A DNA stretch of 64,000 nt from Candidatus Berkelbacteria bacterium. Lineage in GTDB: Bacteria > Patescibacteriota > UBA1384 > JACPKC01. The position numbers and the translations under genes are program-made. The notes under the pieces are model-generated. The model saw only the letters and a list, made by a program, of their open reading frames with translations. It searched no databases and had not been told where the DNA came from. Within the stretch, counting starts at the first letter, position 1, and the number at the start of each line of letters is the position of its first letter. The stretch is taken from contig JACPKC010000010.1 of NCBI GenBank assembly GCA_016187225.1, forward strand, positions 67,541 through 131,540, read 5' to 3'. Below are positions 22,846 to 63,305 of the stretch, piece by piece.

Positions 22846-22923
22846 TGGTCGGGGTGGGCGGATTTGAACCGCCGGTCTCCAGACCCCCAGCCTGGCGCAT
22901 TTGGCCAACTATGCTACACCCCG
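22846..22923 (-). tRNA. tRNA-Pro (anticodon GGG), CCA encoded
   Basis: Manual cloverleaf: acceptor CGGGGTG/CACCCCG, anticodon stem CCAGG/TCTGG with loop CTGGGGG, and T-loop GGTTCAAATCC. Confidence 0.8.
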
Positions 22924-26705: not shown

Positions 26706-26779
26706 TGGCAGGAGCTGGAGGAATCGAACCACCGACCGCGGTTTTGGAGACCGCTGTTATACCACTTAACTAAGCTCCC
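26706..26779 (-). tRNA. tRNA-Trp (anticodon CCA), CCA encoded
   Basis: Acceptor GGGAGCT/AGCTCCT, anticodon stem GCGGT/ACCGC with loop CTCCAAA, and T-loop GGTTCGATTCC. Confidence 0.8.
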
Positions 26780-26789
26780 TTTCTAATTG

Positions 26790-26978
26790 TTAGGTTCGCG
26801 GTTTTGGATTTGGCAATTTTGTCTCGTTATGTTGAGTGTGTTTGCGGCACCAAGTGCAGTATTTTTCAAGCACAAGCTTATCAGTTGTGTTCACAACATT
26901 TTTTGACACCACATAGTTGCGTCGCTTACATTCGACACAAGTGAGATTAAATTTTTGTCGTTTGCCTTTTTTTGCCAT
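26790..26978 (-). CDS. rpmG: 50S ribosomal protein L33
   Basis: '[27 protein letters not shown]...[16 protein letters not shown]' matches L33 with its Cys4 zinc-ribbon. The start is taken at the internal ATG (MAKKGK) rather than the ORF-track upstream extension. Confidence 0.85.
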
Positions 26979-27010
26979 ATTCTTCCTTTCTTTGTCTTTT
27001 TCTACAAAAC

Positions 27011-27085
27011 TGGAGCCCACGGGCGGATTTGAACCGCCGACCTATTCCTTACCATGGAATTGCTCTGCCTCTGAGCTACGTGGGC
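27011..27085 (-). tRNA. tRNA-Thr (anticodon GGT), CCA encoded
   Basis: Acceptor GCCCACG/CGTGGGC, anticodon stem ATTCC/GGAAT with loop ATGGTAA, and T-loop GGTTCAAATCC. Confidence 0.8.
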
Positions 27086-27086
27086 T

Positions 27087-27173
27087 TGGTGCTGGGGGTA
27101 GGATTCGAACCTACGAAGGCGCTGGGCCGTCAGATTTACAGTCTGATGCGTTTGACCGCTTCGCTACCCCAGC
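27087..27173 (-). tRNA. tRNA-Tyr (anticodon GTA), class II long variable arm, CCA encoded
   Basis: Acceptor GCTGGGG/CCCCAGC, anticodon stem TCAGA/TCTGA with loop CTGTAAA, a long variable arm and T-loop GGTTCGAATCC. Confidence 0.78.
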
Positions 27174-27181
27174 TTGTTATC

Positions 27182-27256
27182 TGGAGCCACCTGTCGGATT
27201 TGAACCGACGACCTTCACTTTACAAAAGTGTTGCTCTACCGCTGAGCTAAGGTGGC
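27182..27256 (-). tRNA. tRNA-Thr (anticodon TGT), CCA encoded
   Basis: Acceptor GCCACCT/AGGTGGC, anticodon loop TTTGTAA and T-loop GGTTCAAATCC. The anticodon stem has one mismatch. Confidence 0.7.
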
Positions 27257-52037: not shown

Positions 52038-54037
52038 CGCATGAGTGCATCTTGCGTTTACTAGAACCCATTGTTATGCCAGCCAAACATCTTGTCATTG
52101 TCGAGTCGCCTGCTAAGGGTAAGACGATTGAGCGCTATTTGGGCAAGGATTTTCACGTTCTGGCTTCATACGGACATGTGCGTGATTTGCCAGAGCATAA
52201 CCTTGGTGTTGATGTCGAGCACAAGTTCAAACCAACGTATGTCATTCCGCAAAAAGCTAAGAAAACGATCAGCGCCTTAAAGACTGCCTTAAAGGGCGCT
52301 GACTCCCTTTATTTGGCAACAGACTATGATCGAGAAGGCGAGGCGATTGCCTGGCACATTCTTGAGGCGCTTAACCTCGAAAAGATGAAAATTCCTGTCG
52401 CTCGGATTACCTTCCATGAAATCACAAAATCGGCACTACAGGCGGCGATTAAAAAGCCGCGGTCTCTCGATCTTAACTTAGTTAATGCCCAACAGGCGCG
52501 ACGGATTCTCGATCGTCTAGTCGGTTATACTTTAAGTCCGTTTTTGTGGAAAAAAGTAATGAAAGGTCTTTCGGCGGGGCGCGTGCAATCAGTTGCAGTG
52601 CGTTTGGTCGTTGACCGAGAGCGCGAGATTAAGGCTTTTGTGCCCCAAGAGCACTGGAGTCTTGAAGCGCTTTTGGCAACACGCAAAAAGGAAGAATTTC
52701 GAGCGTCGTTGGCTGAATTTAAGGGGAAGAAGCTTGATAAACTTGGAATTAAAACCGAAAAAGAGGCGCGCGCGCTTGAATCGGCGTTGGCTGGTGTGAC
52801 TTACCAGGTTAAGTTGGTTGAAGAAAAAGAAATCACTAAACGCCCTTCGCCGCCGTTTACAACCTCCACTCTCCAGCAACAGGCCTCGCATCGTTTGCAT
52901 TTTTCAGCCAAGCAGACCATGAAGCTTGCTCAGGATCTATATGAGGCCGGTCACATTACCTATATGCGTACCGACTCAACTAATCTGGCTGGCGAGGCTA
53001 TTTCTGCCACCCGAGGATATATCGAAAAAACATTTGGCGCAAATTATCTTCCGTCTGTGCCTCAATACTACCGAACAAAAAGCAAAGGCGCTCAAGAAGC
53101 GCATGAAGCCATCCGCCCAACCGATGCAACCAAACAGAGTTCGGATTTAAACTTGCCTTCTGATAAACATGCAAAACTTTATGAATTGATTTGGCAGAGA
53201 ATGATTGCTTGTCAGATGGCGCCCGCGCGCCTTAAAGCGACGACCGCCTTAATTCAGGCTGGAGAAGGAATTTTTAAGGCGCATGGCAACGTCGTGGCTT
53301 TCGACGGTTATCTAAGGGTCTGGCCGAGTGATCGAACTGATTCAATTCTACCCAAGTTAGCATCGAATGATTCGCTCACCCTACAAGAATTTTTTACAGA
53401 ACAGCATTTTACCGAACCGCCGGCTCGTTATTCAGAAGCAACTCTCGTTAAGGCGCTTGAGGAACATGGCATTGGTCGACCGAGCACTTACGCGCCAATC
53501 ATCAGCACAATTCAAGATCGAGGCTATGTTCAGCTATTTGAGCGTCGTTTTCAGCCGACTGAAACCGGCGAGATTGTGACTAATCTGCTCGTTGAGCATT
53601 TTCCTGAAATTGTGGACTTAACCTTCACCGCCTCAATGGAAAAAAAGCTCGATCAAGTCGCTGAAGGCGAACAGGATTGGACTAAACTTCTAGGTGATTT
53701 TTACACACCTTTTGACCACAAACTTGAAGTTAAGCAAAAGGAAGTTGAAAAACTTGATCTTACTGAAAAAACCGACAAAACTTGTCCAAAATGCGGCAAG
53801 CCACTCATTATTCGTCGGGGCCGATTCGGTCGATTTTTAGCTTGTACGGGTTTCCCAGAGTGTCGGCATACTGAAGCCATTGTGGAAAAAACAGGGATTC
53901 AATGCCCTGAATGTGGTCAGGGCGAGCTCATCGAAAAGAAGACTCGTCGAGGTAAGACTTTTTGGGGCTGTGAGCGGTACCCAGAATGCAAACATGCCAC
54001 TTGGAATGACCCGCGTAGTCATGAATCATCTTCCTAA
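52034..54037 (+). CDS. topA: DNA topoisomerase I
   Basis: Toprim 'LVIVESPAKGKTI' and 'TDYDREGEAIAWH'. Active-site Tyr region 'SPPFTTSTLQQ'. C-terminal zinc ribbons 'CPKCGK...C', 'CPECGQ' and 'CERYPEC'. The alternative start at 52076 is also possible. Confidence 0.92.
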   Translation: MTHECILRLLEPIVMPAKHLVIVESPAKGKTIERYLGKDFHVLASYGHVRDLPEHNLGVDVEHKFKPTYVIPQKAKKTISALKTALKGADSLYLATDYDREGEAIAWHILEALNLEKMKIPVARITFHEITKSALQAAIKKPRSLDLNLVNAQQARRILDRLVGYTLSPFLWKKVMKGLSAGRVQSVAVRLVVDREREIKAFVPQEHWSLEALLATRKKEEFRASLAEFKGKKLDKLGIKTEKEARALESALAGVTYQVKLVEEKEITKRPSPPFTTSTLQQQASHRLHFSAKQTMKLAQDLYEAGHITYMRTDSTNLAGEAISATRGYIEKTFGANYLPSVPQYYRTKSKGAQEAHEAIRPTDATKQSSDLNLPSDKHAKLYELIWQRMIACQMAPARLKATTALIQAGEGIFKAHGNVVAFDGYLRVWPSDRTDSILPKLASNDSLTLQEFFTEQHFTEPPARYSEATLVKALEEHGIGRPSTYAPIISTIQDRGYVQLFERRFQPTETGEIVTNLLVEHFPEIVDLTFTASMEKKLDQVAEGEQDWTKLLGDFYTPFDHKLEVKQKEVEKLDLTEKTDKTCPKCGKPLIIRRGRFGRFLACTGFPECRHTEAIVEKTGIQCPECGQGELIEKKTRRGKTFWGCERYPECKHATWNDPRSHESSS

Positions 54038-54629
54038 AAGCATCCAACGAGTCATTGAAGAATTGAGCAAACTGCCGGGCATCGGGGGGAAAACTGCCGG
54101 TCGGTTGGCATTTTATCTTGTCCGTCAGCCCCCAAGTCAGAGCGAGCGCTTGGGGCAGGCTCTGATCGAGCTACGAACTCAACTTAAATTTTGCTCAAAT
54201 TGTTTTAATATTACCGAGCTCGATCCCTGCTCAATCTGTGCCAATGCTCGGCGTGATCAAACTTTACTGTGCGTTGTAGAACAGCCGCTCGATACAGTCG
54301 CTCTGGAAAAAACAGAGTATCAGGGACTGTATCATGTGCTTGGTGGTGTTATCTCGCCGATTGAAGGTGTTAGTCCAGATCAGTTAAGAATTCGGGAACT
54401 AATCATTCGTCTTGAGAGTTCATCCAGAATCAAGGAGCTCATCATCGCGACCAATCCCTCGCTTGAAGGGGAGGCGACTGCCTTGTATTTGCAAAAACTG
54501 ATAGCCGATCAAGGTCTCAAAAAAATTAAGTTGAGCCGAATTGCTCATGGCTTGCCAGTTGGGGGAGACCTTGAGTATGCTGACGCCGTTACACTCACAC
54601 GCGCAATTGAGGGGCGCCGTAGTTATTAA
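54021..54629 (+). CDS. recR: Recombination protein RecR
   Basis: HhH 'LSKLPGIGGKTAGRLAFYL', C4 zinc finger 'CSNCFNITELDPCSIC' and Toprim. The start is taken at the internal ATG (MNHLPKS) overlapping the topA end. Confidence 0.88.
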   Translation: MNHLPKSIQRVIEELSKLPGIGGKTAGRLAFYLVRQPPSQSERLGQALIELRTQLKFCSNCFNITELDPCSICANARRDQTLLCVVEQPLDTVALEKTEYQGLYHVLGGVISPIEGVSPDQLRIRELIIRLESSSRIKELIIATNPSLEGEATALYLQKLIADQGLKKIKLSRIAHGLPVGGDLEYADAVTLTRAIEGRRSY

Positions 54630-54657
54630 ACCCGTTTATAGCGGGAGAAGGAGGGGA

Positions 54658-54825
54658 ATGGCAGCGTATTTTTGCAGTGAATGCAACTATGAAACCGAAG
54701 AGAAACAATGTCCGCTCTGCGGGGGCGCAACCGAGATTCTAGACGTAAAAGACGATCCTTTGCTTGGTCAACTTTCACAGCATCCCCAGTATGCATTCGA
54801 TGATGAGGAGCAAACATATATCTAA
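54658..54825 (+). CDS. Small zinc-ribbon protein (55 aa)
   Basis: Strong SD GGAGAAGGAGGGG. 'CSECN...CPLCGG' is a Cys4 ribbon followed by an acidic tail. Confidence 0.5.
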   Translation: MAAYFCSECNYETEEKQCPLCGGATEILDVKDDPLLGQLSQHPQYAFDDEEQTYI

Positions 54826-56225
54826 AATTATTTAACACTGCAACGCAGAAACTTGAGTCGTTCAAGCCAATTCGTCCGAATGAGGTAGGTCTTTATGCGT
54901 GCGGCCCAACGGTCTATCAGTTTGCCCATCTGGGTAATTTTCGCACCTACCTTTTTGAAGATTGGCTCCGTCGCGTTCTTGAGTACCACGGATATGCCGT
55001 CAAGCACGTGATGAACATTACCGATGTCGGGCATTTGGTGAGCGATGCCGACTCGGGAGAAGATAAGCTTGCCCTCGCCGCCAAGAAAGAGGGAAAATCC
55101 GCTTGGCAAATTGCCTCGTTCTATACAGACGCTTTCTTTTTTGACACTGATCGGCTGAATATTGAACGGCCGCACAGTACGCCAAAAGCAGCCGATCACA
55201 TCAAGGATCAGATCGCGCTCATTCAACAACTCGACGCAAAAGGCTTTATCTATCAAACGAGTGATGGCGTCTACTTTGATATTCAGAAGTTCCCCGGGTA
55301 TGCAATCTTAGGTGGCCAATCACTGACTGATCTTGAGGCCGGCGCGCGGGTTGAAATTAATCCAGACAAGCGCCATTGGGCAGACTTTGCCCTGTGGAAG
55401 TTTTCTCCTTCTGATACTAAGCGGGATATGGAATGGGAAAGCCCGTGGGGGACTGGGTTCCCCGGTTGGCATCTTGAATGTAGCGCCATGAGTGTCAACG
55501 AGCTTGGTCAACCGTTTGATCTTCATGCCGGTGGCATTGATCACATTTTTCCACATCATACGAATGAGATTGCTCAAAGTCAGGCGGCCACGGGCCTGCC
55601 ACTGGCAAATTTTTGGCTCCATGGCGCGTTTATGCTTGTTGATAGCCAAAAAATGGGTAAATCCCTCGGCAACACTTTTACGCTTCAAGATATAGTTGAG
55701 CGTGGGCACGCGCCGCTGGCTTTTCGCTACCTCGCTTTGCAAACCCACTATCGCAAACAGTTAAACTTCACCTGGCAAGCGCTTGCAAGCGCCGAGCAGG
55801 CGCTTTTCAAGCTCTCGGCGTTGGCGGAATGTTTGCCAGAACAGGGGAATAAAGTGCCGGTGGAAATTGAAGAGAATTTTCGAGCGTTCATTGCCGACGA
55901 CCTAGCTCTCCCTCAAGCAATCGCGCTTTTTTGGGAGGTCTTGAAATCCAATCAACCTGATGAAGTTAAGGCTCAAGTGATTGTTCATTGGGATCAGATT
56001 TTCGGCTTGGGGCTTAAAGAAAAGTTGGGGCAAGGACAAAAGATCCCATTTGAAATTCAACGCCTGCTTAAAGAGCGCGACCAGGCAAGATTAAACAAGA
56101 ATTTCGTTATTGCCGATCGTTTGCGCCAGCAAATTGAGGAGCAAGGTTTTACGGTGCACGATAAAGATGCAGAGTCTTTCGCCACTCGAAATCCGAATGC
56201 CGATAGACAACCTTTCAACCATTGA
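54816..56225 (+). CDS. cysS: Cysteinyl-tRNA synthetase; the N-terminal 61 codons contain no ATG/GTG/TTG. The candidate start is AUA at 54816 with a GAGGAG SD 5 nt upstream.
   Basis: In-frame translation from 54825 gives 'KLFNTATQKLESFKPIRPNEVGLYACGPTVYQFAHLGNFRTY', which aligns with the CysRS N-terminus and its HIGH motif. Downstream are 'WHLECSAM' and KMSKS 'KMGKSLGN'. The in-frame stop is at 54804. Confidence 0.8.
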   Translation: MYLKLFNTATQKLESFKPIRPNEVGLYACGPTVYQFAHLGNFRTYLFEDWLRRVLEYHGYAVKHVMNITDVGHLVSDADSGEDKLALAAKKEGKSAWQIASFYTDAFFFDTDRLNIERPHSTPKAADHIKDQIALIQQLDAKGFIYQTSDGVYFDIQKFPGYAILGGQSLTDLEAGARVEINPDKRHWADFALWKFSPSDTKRDMEWESPWGTGFPGWHLECSAMSVNELGQPFDLHAGGIDHIFPHHTNEIAQSQAATGLPLANFWLHGAFMLVDSQKMGKSLGNTFTLQDIVERGHAPLAFRYLALQTHYRKQLNFTWQALASAEQALFKLSALAECLPEQGNKVPVEIEENFRAFIADDLALPQAIALFWEVLKSNQPDEVKAQVIVHWDQIFGLGLKEKLGQGQKIPFEIQRLLKERDQARLNKNFVIADRLRQQIEEQGFTVHDKDAESFATRNPNADRQPFNH

Positions 56226-56280
56226 CAGAAGAAAAGGTATCTGCTAGATTTTCACGTTCGTTAATGATATAAATAAATAG

Positions 56281-56308
56281 AAACCAGTGGAGGGCCGCTG
56301 GTTTTTTT
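56281..56308 (+). terminator. Rho-independent terminator after cysS
   Basis: Hairpin AAACCAGTGG-AGGG-CCGCTGGTTT followed by TTTTTTTG. Confidence 0.75.
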
Positions 56309-56461
56309 GTTCTTTCTCGCGTTCTGACTAGGAGCCGCGGAGAGTTGTCGGAGAGCGTTGCTCAAAGACAGTGCCCCTCCTTCCCGGCTGCCCCTCGGGT
56401 CTGGTTCCAGCTTGCTGGCGCCGGCCTGGTCAGAACATGGGGAAGAATAAAGAGGAAGCTA

Positions 56462-59434
56462 ATGTCAGAAAATCACGAGCAATCGAGAGCTAATCCAACG
56501 CCTGAAGGTTCGCATCAAGTTGAGAGTCAGGCAATTTCGCATATCCAAAATGCAATTCCTGAATATCAGCAGAATACGCCAAGTTTCGTAGCGTACAACT
56601 CGCACACTACTCAATCTATTGCTTCTGTTCGCGCTCAAATTGCAAACTACACTGAAAAACATCGCTTGAGTCAGGAAGCGCTTGCTATCCCGCGCGCGAG
56701 CATGCTTGGCAAAATTAAACAATCGCTCACGGTTCCCGCCACACCCGAACACCCAACTCGACTCCAGACTTTTTCCTCAAAGTTTCGAGAGTTTTGGCAC
56801 AAATCAAGCACGCGGTGGGCGCGTTTCGGCGCTGGCGCCGTTGCGACCGGTACAGCCTTCGTGGGCGTTGCCACAGCTAATCCGGTTTTAATTGGTCTTG
56901 GTTTAAGTGGCCGAGTCGCGCTTTCTGGAGCGGGCGCTTTCGCCACCTCTCAAACTTCTATGGAGGGCCGCGATTTGCGCCGTGAAACTAACACCAGCGA
57001 AAAACTCTCACCAATTCGTTGGCTAAAGGGTATCTTTAATAAAAACGCGCTTGCTTTAACTCCTCGAGAGCTTCAATCGATGCAAGTTGAGGAAAGGCAG
57101 GAGCGTTTAGGCAAAACTCTTGCAACGGCCCGAGCAATGGGCGCCGGGAATGTTTTTGATGTTACCAGCCAGCCAACGGCTCTTGAGCAACTCGTCACTT
57201 ATTCTCTGCATACCACGCGCCGGGTTGAACAAGTGCGCCAGGCGCTTCAGAATCGTTTAGAGAGAACTAAATCGAAAGATGCCGGAGTTCAAGCGCAGGC
57301 GCTTCAAAAGTTTGATCAATACAAACTCAACGCAACTCTAAATCGAATTCATATTCACCGATCAAAGTTTTTTGATAATCAAGAAGCCAAGATCGAGCGT
57401 GAAAATTTTGTTCAAGCGGTGGAAAATCATGCAGTCAACAATTTGGTTGAGGCTAAGCAGACTGCTAAAAAGCGCACCTGGATTGCCGCCGCATGGGGCG
57501 CGGGTGCGGCTTTGGTAACGGGATTAACGGGTTTAAAACGCATTGAAACGGCTGAACTTTCCTCCAATTACGGCGAAGGTGTTGGGCCGGCGCTCAAACG
57601 TCTAGTCGAAGGAATTAAGAACATTCCGGGCAATCTAAAAGCGATGGCTGAACGCATCTACGACGATTATTTGCGGCCGACGCCAGAAGTGACGGTTCCC
57701 CCTGCCAGTATTTCTTCTACCGTTCCTGAAGTCATTGGCAGTTACGCTTATCAAAAATCACTCTTGCAAGCCATCGAGAAGGCGCGTGAAACTGGCACGA
57801 ATGCGCCAATTTGGCAAGCGCTCACTGATCTTAAGAAGCAGGGAATTGTTTTAAGCGATGTCTTGACAGCAGACAATAAGAACGAACAGGGTCTCTCTTT
57901 CATTGATTACCTCAAGTTAAACGTTGATCGTTTTCAATCGCCAGAGGAACAGCCGGCGTTGCACAAGCTACTTTCCAGTCAGATCGATGCTCATGGCATC
58001 AGTTCAAGCTATGTCAATGAAAGTCATATCAACTACGCCAACGCGCGCGGTATCAGCACAACTCTTCACGGCAAAAAACTTGAAGCGATGTTCGATAGTC
58101 ATGGCCGTGTGGCGGATTTAGAACTTGGCGGCGTCAATCGTCCGGATCTAATTGAATATATCTCAACTAGCGATGGCCGCTTGTGCTTTGATGAAGTTGC
58201 TTTTAGCGCCGATCACCCGATGCCGGAAGTTGCGCGTCGAAATCCTTTTGCTTTGCCGCAACTGGTTCAAGATGAAATGGTACAGGCAACCGGTAAATTG
58301 CCAGCCACCGACGTTATTGAGCAGCCACAACCGATCGATGCTTTTATTGGGGCGCATAAAGGCGTTAAATACTATGAATATAACTTTGGTGATCATGAGC
58401 TAGTGACTTTCACGCAACCGAGTGGAACATTTGAAGTTTGGGAAAAAGTTGATCTAGGCGTGCGCGGAGTCGGCATTCAACCGGCGGCCGAATTTAGGGA
58501 AATTTTTCAGGGCGCGGAACTGCCAAAGCCAGATTATGGCGTTGAGTATCAGGGCGAGTATCAGGTTTCATTTGAGAATGACTTTGGCGGTCCGATCACG
58601 GCCGAGCGAGTTGCTGGTTTCAGTCAAGAAGAGTTAGCGCACTTCAAGAAAGTGGCCGCCGATCGAGAATCGATCACTCGGTTCTTGAGTCGGCACAGTA
58701 TTGAGAGCCAAAATTTCTTTGTGAATGCGGAATTAGTTAATAGCAAGAATGCGGCTGATGGTACCTGGACAACGTTCTATAATCCAAACGCCCAGTTTGG
58801 TAGCCCCGATACCGGTGTAAAGATTCGTTTCGACGAAGTTGGTCAGGTACAAGAAGTCAAAATGGCCCACATTCCAGTGAACGTTGAGGAAACCCGTCGC
58901 CTCGATGCCTATGTGAGCGAAATGGCCCGTCAGGCGGAGCAGAGTGGTACTGGCGTGAACACTGCCGAAACCGCACGGCTCGATGATGCAGTTCGCGCAC
59001 TGGCTCGCGGAGATCAGGCCAAAGCCACAGTTACTCCAGTTGCTTCGTTTGTAACGAACTCAATGGTGAATACATCGGTTCTGGATGCGCGACCTGAAGT
59101 TGTAGCCCCGCCTATTCAACAAGATGTTATCCATGAGCCAGTAGTAAAGGTTCCAGCGCATACTGATTTTCAAACGTCGATAATGTCGCCTGCGATAGAG
59201 CAGGTTCAGACTCAAAATGAACTTCCTCGAATCGATCTCGCGCCTGAAATTGCGCAACCAGAAGCAATCACTTCAAGCGAAGTACCATTTATGCAAGTCA
59301 TTCCTGAATCGGTTAACGAGACATCTCAAGCGCCGCGCTTGCCTGTAATTTCAGAAAATGTTGAACCGGCTGGATCGGTAGGAGAGAGCGGAGTTTTGCC
59401 GGTGATTCAAGTTGATTCCGAACTCGAAAAATAA
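56462..59434 (+). CDS. Large hypothetical protein (about 990 aa) with two Gly/Ala-rich hydrophobic segments and a Pro/Val/Glu-rich C-terminus
   Basis: The start is taken at the ATG after the AAGAGGAAG SD. The hydrophobic segments are 'GAGAVATGTAFVGVATANPVLIGLGLSG' and 'WIAAAWGAGAALVTGLTGL'. No recognizable catalytic motif. Confidence 0.6.
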   Translation: MSENHEQSRANPTPEGSHQVESQAISHIQNAIPEYQQNTPSFVAYNSHTTQSIASVRAQIANYTEKHRLSQEALAIPRASMLGKIKQSLTVPATPEHPTRLQTFSSKFREFWHKSSTRWARFGAGAVATGTAFVGVATANPVLIGLGLSGRVALSGAGAFATSQTSMEGRDLRRETNTSEKLSPIRWLKGIFNKNALALTPRELQSMQVEERQERLGKTLATARAMGAGNVFDVTSQPTALEQLVTYSLHTTRRVEQVRQALQNRLERTKSKDAGVQAQALQKFDQYKLNATLNRIHIHRSKFFDNQEAKIERENFVQAVENHAVNNLVEAKQTAKKRTWIAAAWGAGAALVTGLTGLKRIETAELSSNYGEGVGPALKRLVEGIKNIPGNLKAMAERIYDDYLRPTPEVTVPPASISSTVPEVIGSYAYQKSLLQAIEKARETGTNAPIWQALTDLKKQGIVLSDVLTADNKNEQGLSFIDYLKLNVDRFQSPEEQPALHKLLSSQIDAHGISSSYVNESHINYANARGISTTLHGKKLEAMFDSHGRVADLELGGVNRPDLIEYISTSDGRLCFDEVAFSADHPMPEVARRNPFALPQLVQDEMVQATGKLPATDVIEQPQPIDAFIGAHKGVKYYEYNFGDHELVTFTQPSGTFEVWEKVDLGVRGVGIQPAAEFREIFQGAELPKPDYGVEYQGEYQVSFENDFGGPITAERVAGFSQEELAHFKKVAADRESITRFLSRHSIESQNFFVNAELVNSKNAADGTWTTFYNPNAQFGSPDTGVKIRFDEVGQVQEVKMAHIPVNVEETRRLDAYVSEMARQAEQSGTGVNTAETARLDDAVRALARGDQAKATVTPVASFVTNSMVNTSVLDARPEVVAPPIQQDVIHEPVVKVPAHTDFQTSIMSPAIEQVQTQNELPRIDLAPEIAQPEAITSSEVPFMQVIPESVNETSQAPRLPVISENVEPAGSVGESGVLPVIQVDSELEK

Positions 59435-59540
59435 TCTTTGAGAGTCTTAGAGCTTTTCACTTTGTGTGTAAAGCTTGATAGGCGTTCAAAGCGGAACGTT
59501 AAAAATTTAGAAAAAATAAGAAGGAAGGGGGTACTCAAAG

Positions 59541-60455
59541 ATGGGTACTCGTAAAAATGGGAACGTTTTTTTTCTTATCGTCGCGCTGGTGGTGAGTGTG
59601 ATGACGATACCAGTGTTCGCACTGGGTTTTCTCGGGCCAATCCTGACTTTCGGGATGTGGTTAGCCGAACAGTTTCGTGACCAGCACCATCGGGCGGAGA
59701 CTCATTCGCCGACGGTTTCATTCGTAATTCAGGTGCCTGACAAGTATCGTCAGCGCGCCGATGAATTTCGGATCGAAACCGACATGGTGATAATCCCGCC
59801 AAGCGAGTCGGGCTACACGTACCGACTCATTAAGGAAGATGGTGGGATGCTTTGGCCAACGACCGTCCGCGTCTGGACTCCGACTTCGGGGTATGAGATT
59901 GAAAAGGTCGAACTGCGGGAGGGGAACCACGTTGTCGATAAGATCGAAGGCAAGCGACTGAAGGCGATGAAGTATTTCGACCTTCAGTTGCCAGATTCGG
60001 TCGGTAACGCGCGGGGTTCGCCCGACCACTTCGAAGTGGTCTTCTACCTTCCGGACGATGAGGAGGAGCGCGTGTCGTGTTCCTTCAGTGTTTTGGCGCT
60101 GACGATCTACGACTGGTATCTGCAGTACGATGAACTGCAAAACCAGCGGATTGGGCGCCGAATGGCTGAAACGCCGCGCCAACTCCACCCTGAGCGGACC
60201 GAGACGGTGACGGTAATCGTTGAGACCGAGACCGGTCTGACGGTTATCGACACCGTAGGGGTGAATCCGCAGGACCGGGCGGCAATCGCTTTCTCGGAGA
60301 AGGTTCAGCCGGGTGTCTATCGCATTCGGGTCAAACCGGGTGCGGTCCGCATCGGTCTGGACCGGCCCGGAGTGGCGACTCCGCCGCCGATTCAAGACGG
60401 TTTCTACGCCGTCGCGCCTGGGTCGCAAACCCAGATCACATTGAAAGGGAGGTAG
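59541..60455 (+). CDS. Membrane-anchored hypothetical protein (304 aa) in a GC-rich segment
   Basis: SD AAGGAAGGGGG. N-terminal TM hairpin 'VFFLIVALVVSVMTIPVFALGFLGPILTFGMWL'. Local GC and codon usage (CGG/GGG/GTC-rich) differ from the flanks. Confidence 0.6.
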   Translation: MGTRKNGNVFFLIVALVVSVMTIPVFALGFLGPILTFGMWLAEQFRDQHHRAETHSPTVSFVIQVPDKYRQRADEFRIETDMVIIPPSESGYTYRLIKEDGGMLWPTTVRVWTPTSGYEIEKVELREGNHVVDKIEGKRLKAMKYFDLQLPDSVGNARGSPDHFEVVFYLPDDEEERVSCSFSVLALTIYDWYLQYDELQNQRIGRRMAETPRQLHPERTETVTVIVETETGLTVIDTVGVNPQDRAAIAFSEKVQPGVYRIRVKPGAVRIGLDRPGVATPPPIQDGFYAVAPGSQTQITLKGR

Positions 60456-60460
60456 AAAAG

Positions 60461-61237
60461 ATGAAAATTTTTTTCATCTTGTTAGCAGTTTTTTTTCTGG
60501 CGGGTCTGCCCACCAGTGCGCGTGGGTATTTGGTACCCGGCAAGAACCCGCAGTCGCCGGCGATCCGGAACGCGGGCAACGAAGTGACGGCGCTCCGGAT
60601 CGCCCAGGAGAAGGGCTGGCGGGTCTACCAGTTGCCCGTCAATACCTACGTGGGTAACTACGGCGCTTCCGGCGAGTTTGTCCGGGGTGTCTTGCCCAGG
60701 GGCGCCTGGATGGGCACAGACGGTACCCACGAGTACGTCGTGGGTTATACCGACGGCCGAGGGGTTTGGCGTGGGTGCGGAAACCTGACCGATCGCATCC
60801 CACCGCCGCCGCCAGTGCGCATTCCACCACCATCGCCGCCGAAGCCGCCGCCCCTCATCCCCTTCATACCGATCACTTCGGGTCTCGTGGTGACTCACGA
60901 GTGGCGGGGTGAGAAGAGTGGCGCGGCGACCGCCAGCGAGTTCTTAACTCGCAACCCGGTTCAAGCGCCGACTATTGTCGGGGATGCCAAGGTGAGCATC
61001 AGCCAGGTGCAAACCCAGGCTCAACCCCTGGCCTTCCCAGACTTTAATATTTCGGCTTTGTCTTCGGCAAACGCCGAAACCGGGCCGATCCAAAACAACA
61101 ACTCCGCCACCTCCCAGGCGAGTAACGTGAACACCGTGCCGATCGGTGTGAACACCGGGCCTGGGAGCGTGACGGTGACTGGGAGTGGCGCGGGTACGCA
61201 AACCGCGCCCACCCAGCAGAACAATTTGATCAGATAG
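60461..61237 (+). CDS. Secreted hypothetical protein (258 aa) with a Pro-rich linker and an N/S/T-rich C-terminal repeat-like segment
   Basis: SD AAAGGGAGG. Signal peptide 'FFILLAVFFLAGLPTSARG'. Polyproline 'IPPPPPVRIPPPSPPKPPPLIP'. The C-terminus 'IQNNNSATSQASNVNTVPIGVNTGPGSVTVTGSG' resembles the repeats of the next gene. Confidence 0.6.
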   Translation: MKIFFILLAVFFLAGLPTSARGYLVPGKNPQSPAIRNAGNEVTALRIAQEKGWRVYQLPVNTYVGNYGASGEFVRGVLPRGAWMGTDGTHEYVVGYTDGRGVWRGCGNLTDRIPPPPPVRIPPPSPPKPPPLIPFIPITSGLVVTHEWRGEKSGAATASEFLTRNPVQAPTIVGDAKVSISQVQTQAQPLAFPDFNISALSSANAETGPIQNNNSATSQASNVNTVPIGVNTGPGSVTVTGSGAGTQTAPTQQNNLIR

Positions 61238-61399
61238 CAACAAGGAGGAGTTGCTGTCTGACAGAGTCTTACCCCGAGCTTCGGCTCGGGGGATATTTCC
61301 TCTAGTCAAATCATGTTGACTGGAGGAAAGTATCAATTGAGGGCGTGCGCTGGTCGAAGCGGGCGAGAGTGCAAATATCGGAAAGGTGGTGAATAAACT

Positions 61400-62230
61400 A
61401 TGCAAAAATCTATCGCAATCGTTGCGTTTGCCTTGATGGTGACAGCTGGATCCTCAAGTGTATTCGCGGCGACCGTGCAAAATAACAACAGCTCTACGAG
61501 TCAGAGCCAGAACACTAACGCCGTTACAACGGTTGTTAATACTGGCAGTGGCTCCGCGGCTGGTTCAAGTAGTTCGGCGAGCGCCCAGGATTCGTCAACG
61601 AATCAATCGAACGAGAGGCAATCAACTTCGACTTCGCAAAGTTCGGGCACTGCGACTACAGGTTTGGTGCAAAATAACAATGTTAGCACCAGTCAAAGCC
61701 AGAACGTAAACGCCACCACAACGGTTGTTAACACCGGCAGTGGGAATGTGAGCGGCTCGGCGAGCGCCAGTGGCGGTCAAGCGTCAGAAACAACGCAAAG
61801 CAACTTTGCTTCTGGAAACAGCCAAAATCGGACCGAAAATAACAACAGTTCGATTAGCCAAAGCCAGAACGTGAATTGCGGCACAACCGTTGTCAATACC
61901 TCATCAGGTGATGCCTCTGGTGCGTGTGCGGCGGCAGGTAGCCAAACGGCAACTACGACACAGTCGAACACAACCGAACAGACTCAAACGAAAAAGAATG
62001 AGACCAAGATTGAACAAGCCCAATCAGTGGCACAAGCAACTTCAGTGGCTGGTGTTCCAACCACAACCACTCAAGTCCCGCCGGTTACAACCAAAACCGA
62101 GCTTCCGAAAGAGCTCCTGAAGACGGGTGCAAATACGGTTGCTCTCGCGCTTGGTAGCGCAGTGATCTCAGCCGGTGGCGCAGCATTCGCTCGTCGCAAG
62201 CAGATGGTCGCAGATCTCATCGTTGGCTAA
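61400..62230 (+). CDS. Surface repeat protein: signal peptide, three tandem repeats of about 38 aa (VQNNNxSTSQSQNxNAxTTVVNTGSG...), Thr-rich stalk and a C-terminal LPXTG-like sorting signal
   Basis: Three tandem repeats are visible. The C-terminus 'LPKELLKTGANTVALALGSAVISAGGAAFARRKQ' is a motif + hydrophobic helix + basic tail. Confidence 0.7.
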   Translation: MQKSIAIVAFALMVTAGSSSVFAATVQNNNSSTSQSQNTNAVTTVVNTGSGSAAGSSSSASAQDSSTNQSNERQSTSTSQSSGTATTGLVQNNNVSTSQSQNVNATTTVVNTGSGNVSGSASASGGQASETTQSNFASGNSQNRTENNNSSISQSQNVNCGTTVVNTSSGDASGACAAAGSQTATTTQSNTTEQTQTKKNETKIEQAQSVAQATSVAGVPTTTTQVPPVTTKTELPKELLKTGANTVALALGSAVISAGGAAFARRKQMVADLIVG

Positions 62231-62321: not shown

Positions 62322-63305
62322 ATGGAAGAGCAATTCGATGAGGGTAAACTCAAACTCTACGATCTTCTCAAACTCGGAGAGAAAGAAACGTTGATCCGGA
62401 CCATCGAAGCCGAAATGGCACTGCCGGAGTTTTGGGCTGACCGAATCCGCGCTGAAACTCGTTCAAAAGAGCTGGCGAGTGCCAAATCACTCATCGAGGA
62501 GTGGGAGCGCGCAGAGACTCCAGAGAGTTTACGAACGTTAGAACTCAAAGCAGTGTTGGCCGGCCAGTACGATGCCAGCAACGCAATCGTCTCGCTTCAT
62601 GCCGGTGCTGGTGGCACTGAAGCGCAGGATTGGACGAGTATGCTCAAGCGAATGGTAGAGCGCTGGGCGGAGCACAAGGGATTTTCAGTGACCCTGCTTG
62701 ATGAATCCCGCGGCGAAGAAGCCGGACTCAAATCCGCAACGCTCAAGATTGAGGGGCCATACGCCTATGGATACCTCAAGGCTGAAGCTGGGGTTCACCG
62801 TCTTGTCAGGATCTCTCCGTTTGATTCCGATAAAGCCCGCCATACATCATTCTCGCTCGTAGAAGTTGTACCGGAACTACGCGAGGTAGGGGATATAGAG
62901 ATCGACGAAAAAGATCTACGGATCGATCTCTTCCGAGCCGGTGGCCATGGTGGTCAGAATGTGAATAAAGTAGAAACGGCGGTTCGCCTTACACATATTC
63001 CGACCGGAATTGTTGTAACATCACAGAACGAACGATCACAGGCACAGAATCGAGAGTTGGCAATGAAGGTGCTGATTGCAAAGCTACAGGTACTTGCCGA
63101 ACAGGCACATCTCGACAAGATCTCTGAACTGAAAGGTGAGCATCGGAAGGTAGAGTGGGGGAGTCAAATTCGTTCATACGTCCTCCAGCCGTACCGGCTG
63201 GTGAAGGATGTTCGAACGGGTCATGAAGAGTCTAATGTTGATGCCGTGCTCGATGGTAATCTCGATCCATTTATAGAAGCGTATCTCGAACAACAGGTAA
63301 AATAA
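62322..63305 (+). CDS. prfB: Peptide chain release factor 2 (short form, 327 aa)
   Basis: SPF motif '[15 protein letters not shown]' and GGQ motif '[25 protein letters not shown]'. No in-frame upstream extension (stop at 62286) and no CUU-UGA-C frameshift site found. Confidence 0.85.

Follow-up and report, generated by a model that had tools for sequence, protein, structure and literature searches.

Cysteinyl-tRNA synthetase of a Berkelbacteria-like clade probably starts at a conserved AUA, AUU or AUC codon behind a strong Shine-Dalgarno sequence

Conserved AUA, AUU and AUC (AUH) start codons are very rare in bacteria, and only a handful are understood (infC, pcnB, ccpN, and cvfC1). The infC gene, which encodes initiation factor 3 (IF3), is essential and has an AUH start that is conserved across species behind a Shine-Dalgarno (SD) sequence (AUU in Escherichia coli); the weak codon restricts initiation and exposes it to IF3 proofreading. 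In E. coli, pcnB has been cited as the second gene on the chromosome with an AUU start (PMC13009471). In Staphylococcus aureus, the conserved starts of infC (AUA), ccpN (AUA, as in Bacillus subtilis), cvfC1 (AUU), and citZ (AUA) are directed by extended SD sequences, and reporters for the latter three genes, whose starts were shown by Ribo-Ret, reached about 10-30% of the expression obtained with AUG (PMC13009471). Compensation between SD sequence and start codon is documented, and one AUG-to-AUU switch was counted among 61,358 ancestral AUG starts (Belinky et al., PMC5622118). Coupling by termination-reinitiation is documented for overlapping, co-directional gene pairs (Huber et al., 2019, PMC6728339; reviewed in PMC12548453). 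Here, we describe cysS, the gene for cysteinyl-tRNA synthetase (CysRS), in a stretch of 64,000 nucleotides from a Candidatus Berkelbacteria bacterium (the window; contig JACPKC010000010.1). The gene is without a canonical start codon at its conserved 5' end and overlaps a small, upstream open reading frame (ORF) with a predicted zinc ribbon (ZR).

The cysS gene of the window very probably initiates at the AUA codon at 54816-54818 by an SD-driven process that would use the initiator tRNA and a codon kept weak deliberately. As with infC, cysS is an essential gene of the translation apparatus with a conserved AUH start behind an SD sequence. However, IF3 discriminates against its own start codon, which results in autoregulation, whereas CysRS is not known to take part in start-codon selection; infC itself is not present in the window for comparison. 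Like ccpN, cvfC1, citZ, and pcnB, cysS pairs a conserved AUH codon with a strong SD sequence at proper spacing. In contrast to these genes, which are free-standing or first in their operons, the cysS start lies within the 3' end of an ORF that precedes it, varies over all three isoleucine codons, and is predicted here from sequence. Our literature search found no paper on non-canonical cysS starts or on start-codon usage in bacteria of the Candidate Phyla Radiation (CPR).

The cysS reading frame is closed by an in-frame double stop (TGA TGA, 54801-54806; this and all other features of the locus are on the plus strand) four codons 5' of the ATA, and is open downstream. The codons after the stops are GGA GCA AAC ATA (54816) TAT CTA AAA (54825) TTA TTT AAC ACT, and the translation reads G-A-N-I-Y-L-K-L-F-N-T-A-T-Q. 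ATA is the sole near-cognate codon between the in-frame stop and the conserved KLFNT, and the first ATG, GTG, or TTG in the frame is GTG 55008, codon 62 from 54825, followed by ATG 55011 (together 55008-55013). Read from the ATA, cysS spans 54816-56225 and encodes 469 amino acids followed by a TGA stop. The ATA-start product matched the NCBIfam model TIGR00435 with 417 bits (cutoff 340; 1e-124), with residues 3-451 covering model positions 1-458, and matched Pfam tRNA-synt_1e (PF01406, 2e-97) and CysS_C. These matches and the presence of HLGN (the HIGH-type motif, 54927-54938) and KMGKS (the KMSKS-type motif, 55650-55664) confirmed a full-length CysRS; the CGPTVY motif is at 54900-54917. The original prediction had described a frame open from 54804 with no ATG, GTG, or TTG until codon 62 at 55008, and a HIGH motif that would be deleted by a start at 55008. 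The coordinates were verified, and HLGN does lie 5' of 55008.

To place this start among its relatives, the frame upstream of CGPTVY was inspected in two sets of 80 cysS loci, one drawn from GTDB species genomes and the other from JGI metagenomes. Further contigs were obtained from CysRS homologues with truncated called N-termini and from ZR homologues. CGPTVY was detected in 76 of the GTDB loci, and 72 of these had a canonical start (ATG, one GTG) 26-32 codons 5' of the motif; the exceptions were L001, L047, and the window's own copies (L081/L082). In the JGI set, CGPTVY was detected in 72 loci, three of which were truncated at a contig end, and each of the 69 loci that could be scored had a canonical start at the expected place. 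The scan of these 80 metagenome loci revealed no further AUH case and no relative closer than 54%. The best other CysRS matches to the window protein had 59-64% identity, and identity among the lineages with a full-length sequence was 57-74% (L173 is partial). The alignment of cysS 5' ends from close relatives, proposed as a check by the original prediction, placed an AUH codon at the equivalent site in seven other lineages (ATA in five, ATT in one, and ATC in one). In the AUH lineages, no canonical start codon occurred at or close to the conserved CysRS N-terminus. With AUH kept by orthologues at a fixed distance from the SD sequence and no canonical alternative, the genuine AUA start that the prediction had preferred was strongly supported.

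The junctions of these lineages are given here as SD sequence, spacer, and start codon, with the position of the ZR stop numbered from the A of the start. The window has GAGGAG-caaac-ATA and a ZR stop at +8 to +10. The stop is at the same position in L001 (GAGGAc-gatct-ATA), L166/L167 (GAGGAc-gacct-ATA), and L176-178 (GGAGGAtgacct-ATA), at +5 to +7 in L165 (GAGGAc-cagcc-ATA), and at +2 to +4 in L173 (GAGGAG-ctgct-ATA). It precedes the start codon in L169/170 (GAGGAG-taagt-ATT, -5 to -3) and L172 (AAGGAacaagt-ATC, -12 to -10). L001 is a Berkelbacteria genome whose CysRS has 59% identity to that of the window and whose junction reads ...CGA GGA CGA TCT ATA CCT GTA GCC... The gene order topA-recR-ZR-cysS was common to all AUH loci where the contig reached far enough upstream, and was read in L001, L163, L165, L167, L169, L172, L174, and L176.

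Several observations indicated that the constraint acts on the AUH codon itself. The A that begins ATA falls at the third position of differing ZR codons (ACA for Thr, CTA for Leu, and CCA for Pro), the ATA of L173 spans a ZR Leu codon and the stop, and the AUH codons of L169 and L172 lie outside the ZR ORF. The AUH codon is therefore constrained in the cysS frame rather than arising as a side effect of ZR coding. The residues that follow were variable (IYL-, IPVAIQ-, ILDIQ-, IPLTLS-, IAIR-, IPIR-, and IEIK-), whereas AUH was invariant. In a rough neighbor-joining tree without support values, the AUH lineages were basal and paraphyletic and the ATG lineages were nested at least three times, which suggests that the AUH start is old in the clade.

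Sequencing or assembly error, in the form of a true ATG read as ATA (G to A) or an indel hiding an upstream start, was the alternative offered by the original prediction. ATA is indeed one base from ATG and the window comes from a metagenome-assembled genome (MAG). However, Logan assemblies of two sequencing runs, SRR12113424 (88-kb contig) and SRR12113420 (6.7-kb contig), matched the window without a single mismatch over 7.2 and 5.4 kb, respectively, so that two independent run-level assemblies and the GenBank MAG agree. The GenBank protein MBI2590034.1 (from a 320-kb contig; MYLKLFNTATQ..., 469 amino acids), annotated as 'cysteine--tRNA ligase [Candidatus Berkelbacteria bacterium]', is the ATA-start translation. 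The homologous site was ATA, ATT, or ATC in seven other lineages, and ATT and ATC are unobtainable by the same error. In-frame stops were detected 2-8 codons 5' of the AUH codon in the window, L166/167, L169, L172, and L176; in L176-178, a TGA is just two codons 5' of the ATA. We reject sequencing error as an explanation, and it is effectively refuted.

Initiation at GTG 55008 or ATG 55011, or the decay of cysS into a pseudogene, was extremely unlikely. A public Prodigal-type call does use the first canonical codons and gives a product of 404 amino acids (P0001, MNITDVGH..., called on contigs of both sequencing runs, whose 90% cluster includes MBI2590034.1), and orthologues are similarly truncated (P0012, P0015, P0017, and P0082). 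Such a product is without CGPTVY and HIGH, two motifs that class I synthetases require to bind ATP. The 64 codons between the ATA and GTG 55008 comprise the conserved CysRS N-terminus including HIGH; they are conserved as protein and match CysRS models from the first position. The cysS ORF was intact in every lineage, and no second cysS was seen in the window. Automatic gene calls removed about 20-65 CysRS residues in every AUH lineage, some with the loss of HIGH (P0001, P0012, P0015, P0016, P0017, P0082, and the calls in L172, L173, and L176), because the callers permit only ATG, GTG, and TTG starts. The CysRS truncation is a systematic annotation error for the clade. NCBI PGAP correctly called the ATA start in the window genome and in L001, where the annotated CysRS begins with MPVAIQLHNT.

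The non-canonical start is gene-specific and does not reflect a genome-wide habit, since, among the window's long ORFs (about 60), only cysS lacked a canonical start without an overlapping upstream gene to explain it. A variant code in which ATA specifies methionine was also considered and excluded. ATA codons are rare here, with two in cysS, including the start, and none in topA; the internal cysS ATA aligned with leucine, valine, or isoleucine, showing a standard genetic code, and ATT or ATC serves as the start in sister lineages.

The strength and position of the SD sequence distinguished the AUH starts from other cysS starts. In the window, GAGGAG (54805-54810) corresponds to two Glu codons of the ZR tail and is separated from the ATA by a 5-nt spacer, as the original prediction had stated in placing the ATA 5 nt 3' of a GAGGAG inside a 55-aa ORF that ends at 54825. 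Its duplex with the anti-SD sequence had a predicted energy of -8.6 kcal/mol, within the top ~2% of random positions and the top ~19% of gene starts in the window. Only 25 of the 1477 ATA triplets in the window (1.7%) had an SD sequence as strong as that of cysS upstream. The rarity of such ATA triplets, the uniqueness of cysS among about 60 ORFs, and the recurrence in seven lineages make the combination of ATA and GAGGAG more than a chance occurrence. In all eight AUH lineages, GAGGA(G/C) or AAGGA was present at -11 to -7 from the start, and the duplex energies ranged from -5.9 to -9.5 kcal/mol (mean -7.4). The two ATG lineages of the clade had energies of -3.8 (L163/164) and -2.1 kcal/mol (L174/175), and the other ATG-start cysS loci (n = 139) had a mean of -1.95 kcal/mol, with 15% at or below -5.9. 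The energies of AUH and ATG starts differed with p = 5e-5 (Mann-Whitney), a value that overstates independence because the lineages are related. On these predicted pairings, the weak AUH codon is compensated by a strong SD sequence at a fixed distance.

The SD sequence is embedded in the ZR ORF, and the degree of overlap between ZR and cysS varied with the start codon. Relative to cysS, the ZR ORF is read in the +1 frame, and the two genes share the final 10 nt of ZR. The Glu/Asp codons of the acidic ZR tail (GAG GAG or GAG GAC) double as the cysS SD sequence. The ZR stop was located within -12 to +10 nt of the cysS start in all eight AUH lineages, and it was located 34-125 nt upstream in both ATG members of the clade (34 nt in L163/164 and about 123 nt in L174/175). 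L163/164 is the closest relative of the window (CysRS identity of 63-64%) and has an ATG start.

The ZR ORF (54658-54825) encodes 55 amino acids (MAAYFCSEC...CPLC...VKDDPLLG...DDEEQTYI) with a CxxC...CxxC arrangement, and has its own SD sequence, AAGGAGG (54648-54654), 3 nt 5' of the ATG at 54658. Its TAA stop (54823-54825) lies at +8 to +10 from the A of the cysS ATA, the same geometry as in L001, L166/L167, and L176. Upstream is recR (54021-54629; Pfam RecR_HhH, RecR_ZnF, Toprim_4, and RecR_C), which belongs to the topA-recR-ZR-cysS block. ZR homologues formed 22 clusters in a set of 5.8 billion proteins, the named ones being from Berkelbacteria. The four cysteines (C6, C9, C18, and C21) were invariant across these clusters, as was D-D-P of the VKDDPL motif, of which V, K, and L were nearly so; the acidic tail ends in Y or L. 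A phmmer search with ZR against 1.8 billion representatives gave eight hits, and a single-sequence word search retrieved only ZR itself. In the AlphaFold2 (AF2) model, residues 1-30 form a zinc ribbon (pLDDT ~85) and the tail is disordered. ZR is a real, conserved, and lineage-restricted small protein.

The ZR family (50-57 amino acids; MATYFCxEC...CPLC...VKDDPLLG...) was confined to Berkelbacteria-like CPR bacteria and had members in the window, L001, L163, L165-L167, L169, and L172-L178, always located between recR and cysS. Attempts to name the protein by Pfam, NCBIfam, PDB sequence comparison, AF2 with Foldseek, and phmmer yielded only generic zinc-ribbon similarity. The best Pfam score was 16.5 bits (cutoff 27) and NCBIfam scores were at most 20 bits (cutoffs 34-108 or more), and none of the named zinc-ribbon families compared (LysW-like PF21344, Spt4/RpoE'', and rubredoxin-like) scored above its curated cutoff. 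Comparison with the PDB gave profile E-values of at least 0.12 and Foldseek E-values of at least 0.15, the latter for a 27-residue knuckle only. The disordered, acidic tail with its aromatic or hydrophobic end resembles the partner-binding tails of the SSB type. The exact ZR protein of the window genome is present in the Logan calls and missing from the NCBI annotation.

Initiation at AUA 54816 would proceed by pairing of the 30S anti-SD sequence with GAGGAG (54805-54810), which would set the AUA in the P site 5 nt downstream. The initiator fMet-tRNA would accept AUA despite the third-position mismatch, giving a product that begins fMet-Tyr-Leu-Lys-Leu-Phe-Asn-Thr. Selection would keep the codon weak (ATA, ATT, or ATC, never ATG, in the overlapping arrangement), offset by the strong SD sequence. 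Ribosomes that end ZR translation 7 nt downstream would probably aid initiation, either by termination-reinitiation or by a locally high supply of ribosomes. The expected outcome would be a low, initiation-limited, and IF3-sensitive synthesis of CysRS that is tied to ZR translation. We infer both the use of the initiator tRNA and a regulatory purpose; no initiator tRNA gene was detected in the window.

The ZR-cysS pair fits the geometry of coupled pairs, as the genes are co-directional with a 10-nt overlap (ATA at 54816, TAA at 54823-54825) and the cysS SD sequence lies inside ZR. As in known coupled, overlapping pairs, the SD sequence is in the upstream gene and the stop and start are a few nucleotides apart, a geometry known for tight coupling. 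Unlike the typical ATGA or TGATG overlaps with canonical starts, the ZR-cysS overlap is 10 nt long and the start is near-cognate. Translational coupling of cysS to ZR is plausible, and the correlation between overlap and start codon suggests that it probably occurs. Coupling through the unmasking of RNA structure was considered and rejected: the predicted accessibility of the cysS ribosome binding site (RBS) was equal to or above background in seven of the eight AUH lineages, and the region 54760-54880 folded less stably than shuffled sequences (z = +1.28). Since the RBS is not structurally masked, coupling of the unmasking type is not indicated and direct initiation is also possible.

Several points weigh against initiation at AUA by this coupled route. 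AUA is a poor initiator in model bacteria, and its use for an essential, single-copy synthetase is surprising. The support for coupling is correlative only (overlap in 8/8 AUH vs. 0/2 ATG lineages) and, with an RBS that is not sequestered, reinitiation and free initiation are indistinguishable. The direction of switches between ATG and AUH is uncertain in a tree without support values, and the relatedness of the lineages means that p-values overstate their independence.

The RBS of L163 (1480-1503), the closest relative, was predicted to be unusually paired, with an unpaired probability of 0.13 (2nd percentile of background), and this pairing was not predicted in the AUH lineages. The pairing in L163 may be a different means of limiting cysS translation.

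Overlapping frames with an internal SD-like element also raise the possibility of recoding, in which ribosomes translating ZR shift by -1 or read through into the cysS frame to make a ZR-CysRS fusion, with GAGGAG acting as an SD-like stimulator as in dnaX. The cysS frame is -1 relative to ZR in seven of the eight AUH lineages, the overlap geometry is conserved, and the SD-like element lies 5-6 nt upstream, resembling the internal SD-like sequence a few nucleotides 5' of the frame change in dnaX (-1) and prfB (+1). In contrast to dnaX and prfB, no slippery heptamer of the form X XXY YYZ was detected in the overlap of the window (GGAGCAAACATATATCTAA) or of any relative, and there was no shared or plausible P-site re-pairing in any overlap window, which is just 13 nt long in L176. 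Nor was a stable downstream structure predicted in the region 54760-54880. The frame relation is not conserved; in L172, ZR shares the cysS frame and ends with TAA, which would call for a different mechanism there. The genes are fully separate in the ATG members L163 and L174. A frameshift would leave the conserved AUH codon at a fixed SD distance unexplained, and an N-terminal ZR domain was found in none of the 120 CysRS homologues listed. The absence of a slippery site, a conserved frame relation, and a structure makes recoding very unlikely, and the ZR-cysS pair is not a member of the dnaX/prfB group.

A further reading accepts the AUA start and assigns ZR the role of a regulatory upstream ORF, in which four early Cys codons would tie ribosome traffic over the cysS RBS to the supply of Cys-tRNA(Cys) through occlusion or lost reinitiation, making CysRS synthesis responsive to cysteine charging. 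Four invariant Cys codons do occur within the first 21 ZR codons, the ZR ORF contains the cysS RBS, and it is precisely in the lineages with a weak start codon that the overlap is conserved. However, ZR resembles a folded, conserved protein (zinc ribbon, D-D-P, acidic tail) rather than a leader peptide, and zinc binding explains its Cys codons. The RBS is 100-160 nt downstream of these codons, the effect could run in either direction, and ATG lineages retain ZR without the overlap. We consider a cysteine-sensing ORF quite unlikely. An RNA leader or riboswitch was considered as well and rejected, as no Rfam hit was obtained at E <= 1 on 53800-56400. At the gathering threshold, Rfam detected only tRNAs in the whole window, with no T-box-type control.

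Two other cysS loci may depart from canonical initiation. L168:397 (GCA_973788475.1, CCZJVJ010000049.1) belongs to a different clade and is sister to P0032 (MVKLFN...). It reads TAG GCG ATC CTC ATC ATA GTC AAA CTC TTT, with ATA where relatives have the initiator Met, and has no ZR ORF and a weak SD sequence (-2.8 kcal/mol). This locus either has an AUA start of independent origin or reflects an error of a single assembly. At L047:~3010 (CAZPLP010000014.1, Saccharibacteria), ATT TAT CTT TAT AAT ACT (I-Y-L-Y-N-T) occupies the usual cysS start; the sole upstream ATG is 15 codons further 5' and no obvious SD sequence was present. This gene may have an AUU start or a short N-terminal extension.

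Downstream of cysS, a hairpin that resembles an intrinsic terminator (56279-56316; a 12-bp stem and a T run) likely marks the end of the operon. Four consecutive ORFs of 1029, 304, 258, and 276 amino acids follow (56345-62227), with no Pfam hit at 1e-5, and the GC content is 0.57 at 60-62 kb compared to ~0.47 in the rest of the window. A release-factor gene (62322-63302; PCRF and RF-1 domains) starts with a conventional ATG, and no prfB-type +1 frameshift site (CTTTGA) was detected near it; its product is either RF1 or an unshifted RF2. The minus strand contains a tRNA cluster (Trp, Thr(GGU), Tyr, and Thr(UGU); 26706-27256) and a separate tRNA-Pro(GGG) (22846-22923).

The AUH start of cysS appears to be a further example of a rare but known way of tuning translation. 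It adds an essential aminoacyl-tRNA synthetase to the genes with such starts, in a CPR clade in which the weak start persisted across deep divergence. Because AUH co-varies with SD strength and ZR overlap, the clade offers a natural experiment on the trade-off between start weakness, SD sequence, and coupling. The truncation of CysRS by Prodigal-type calls can distort completeness estimates and metabolic inferences for CPR MAGs. ZR, its acidic-tail SD sequence, and the overlapping AUH start could even form a dedicated module for the control of CysRS, in which Cys-codon traffic would report on Cys-tRNA(Cys) supply to the cysS RBS or the same ribosome would make ZR as a stoichiometric partner for CysRS. 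Such a module is quite unlikely; if true, it would be a new way to regulate or assemble an aminoacyl-tRNA synthetase in CPR bacteria.

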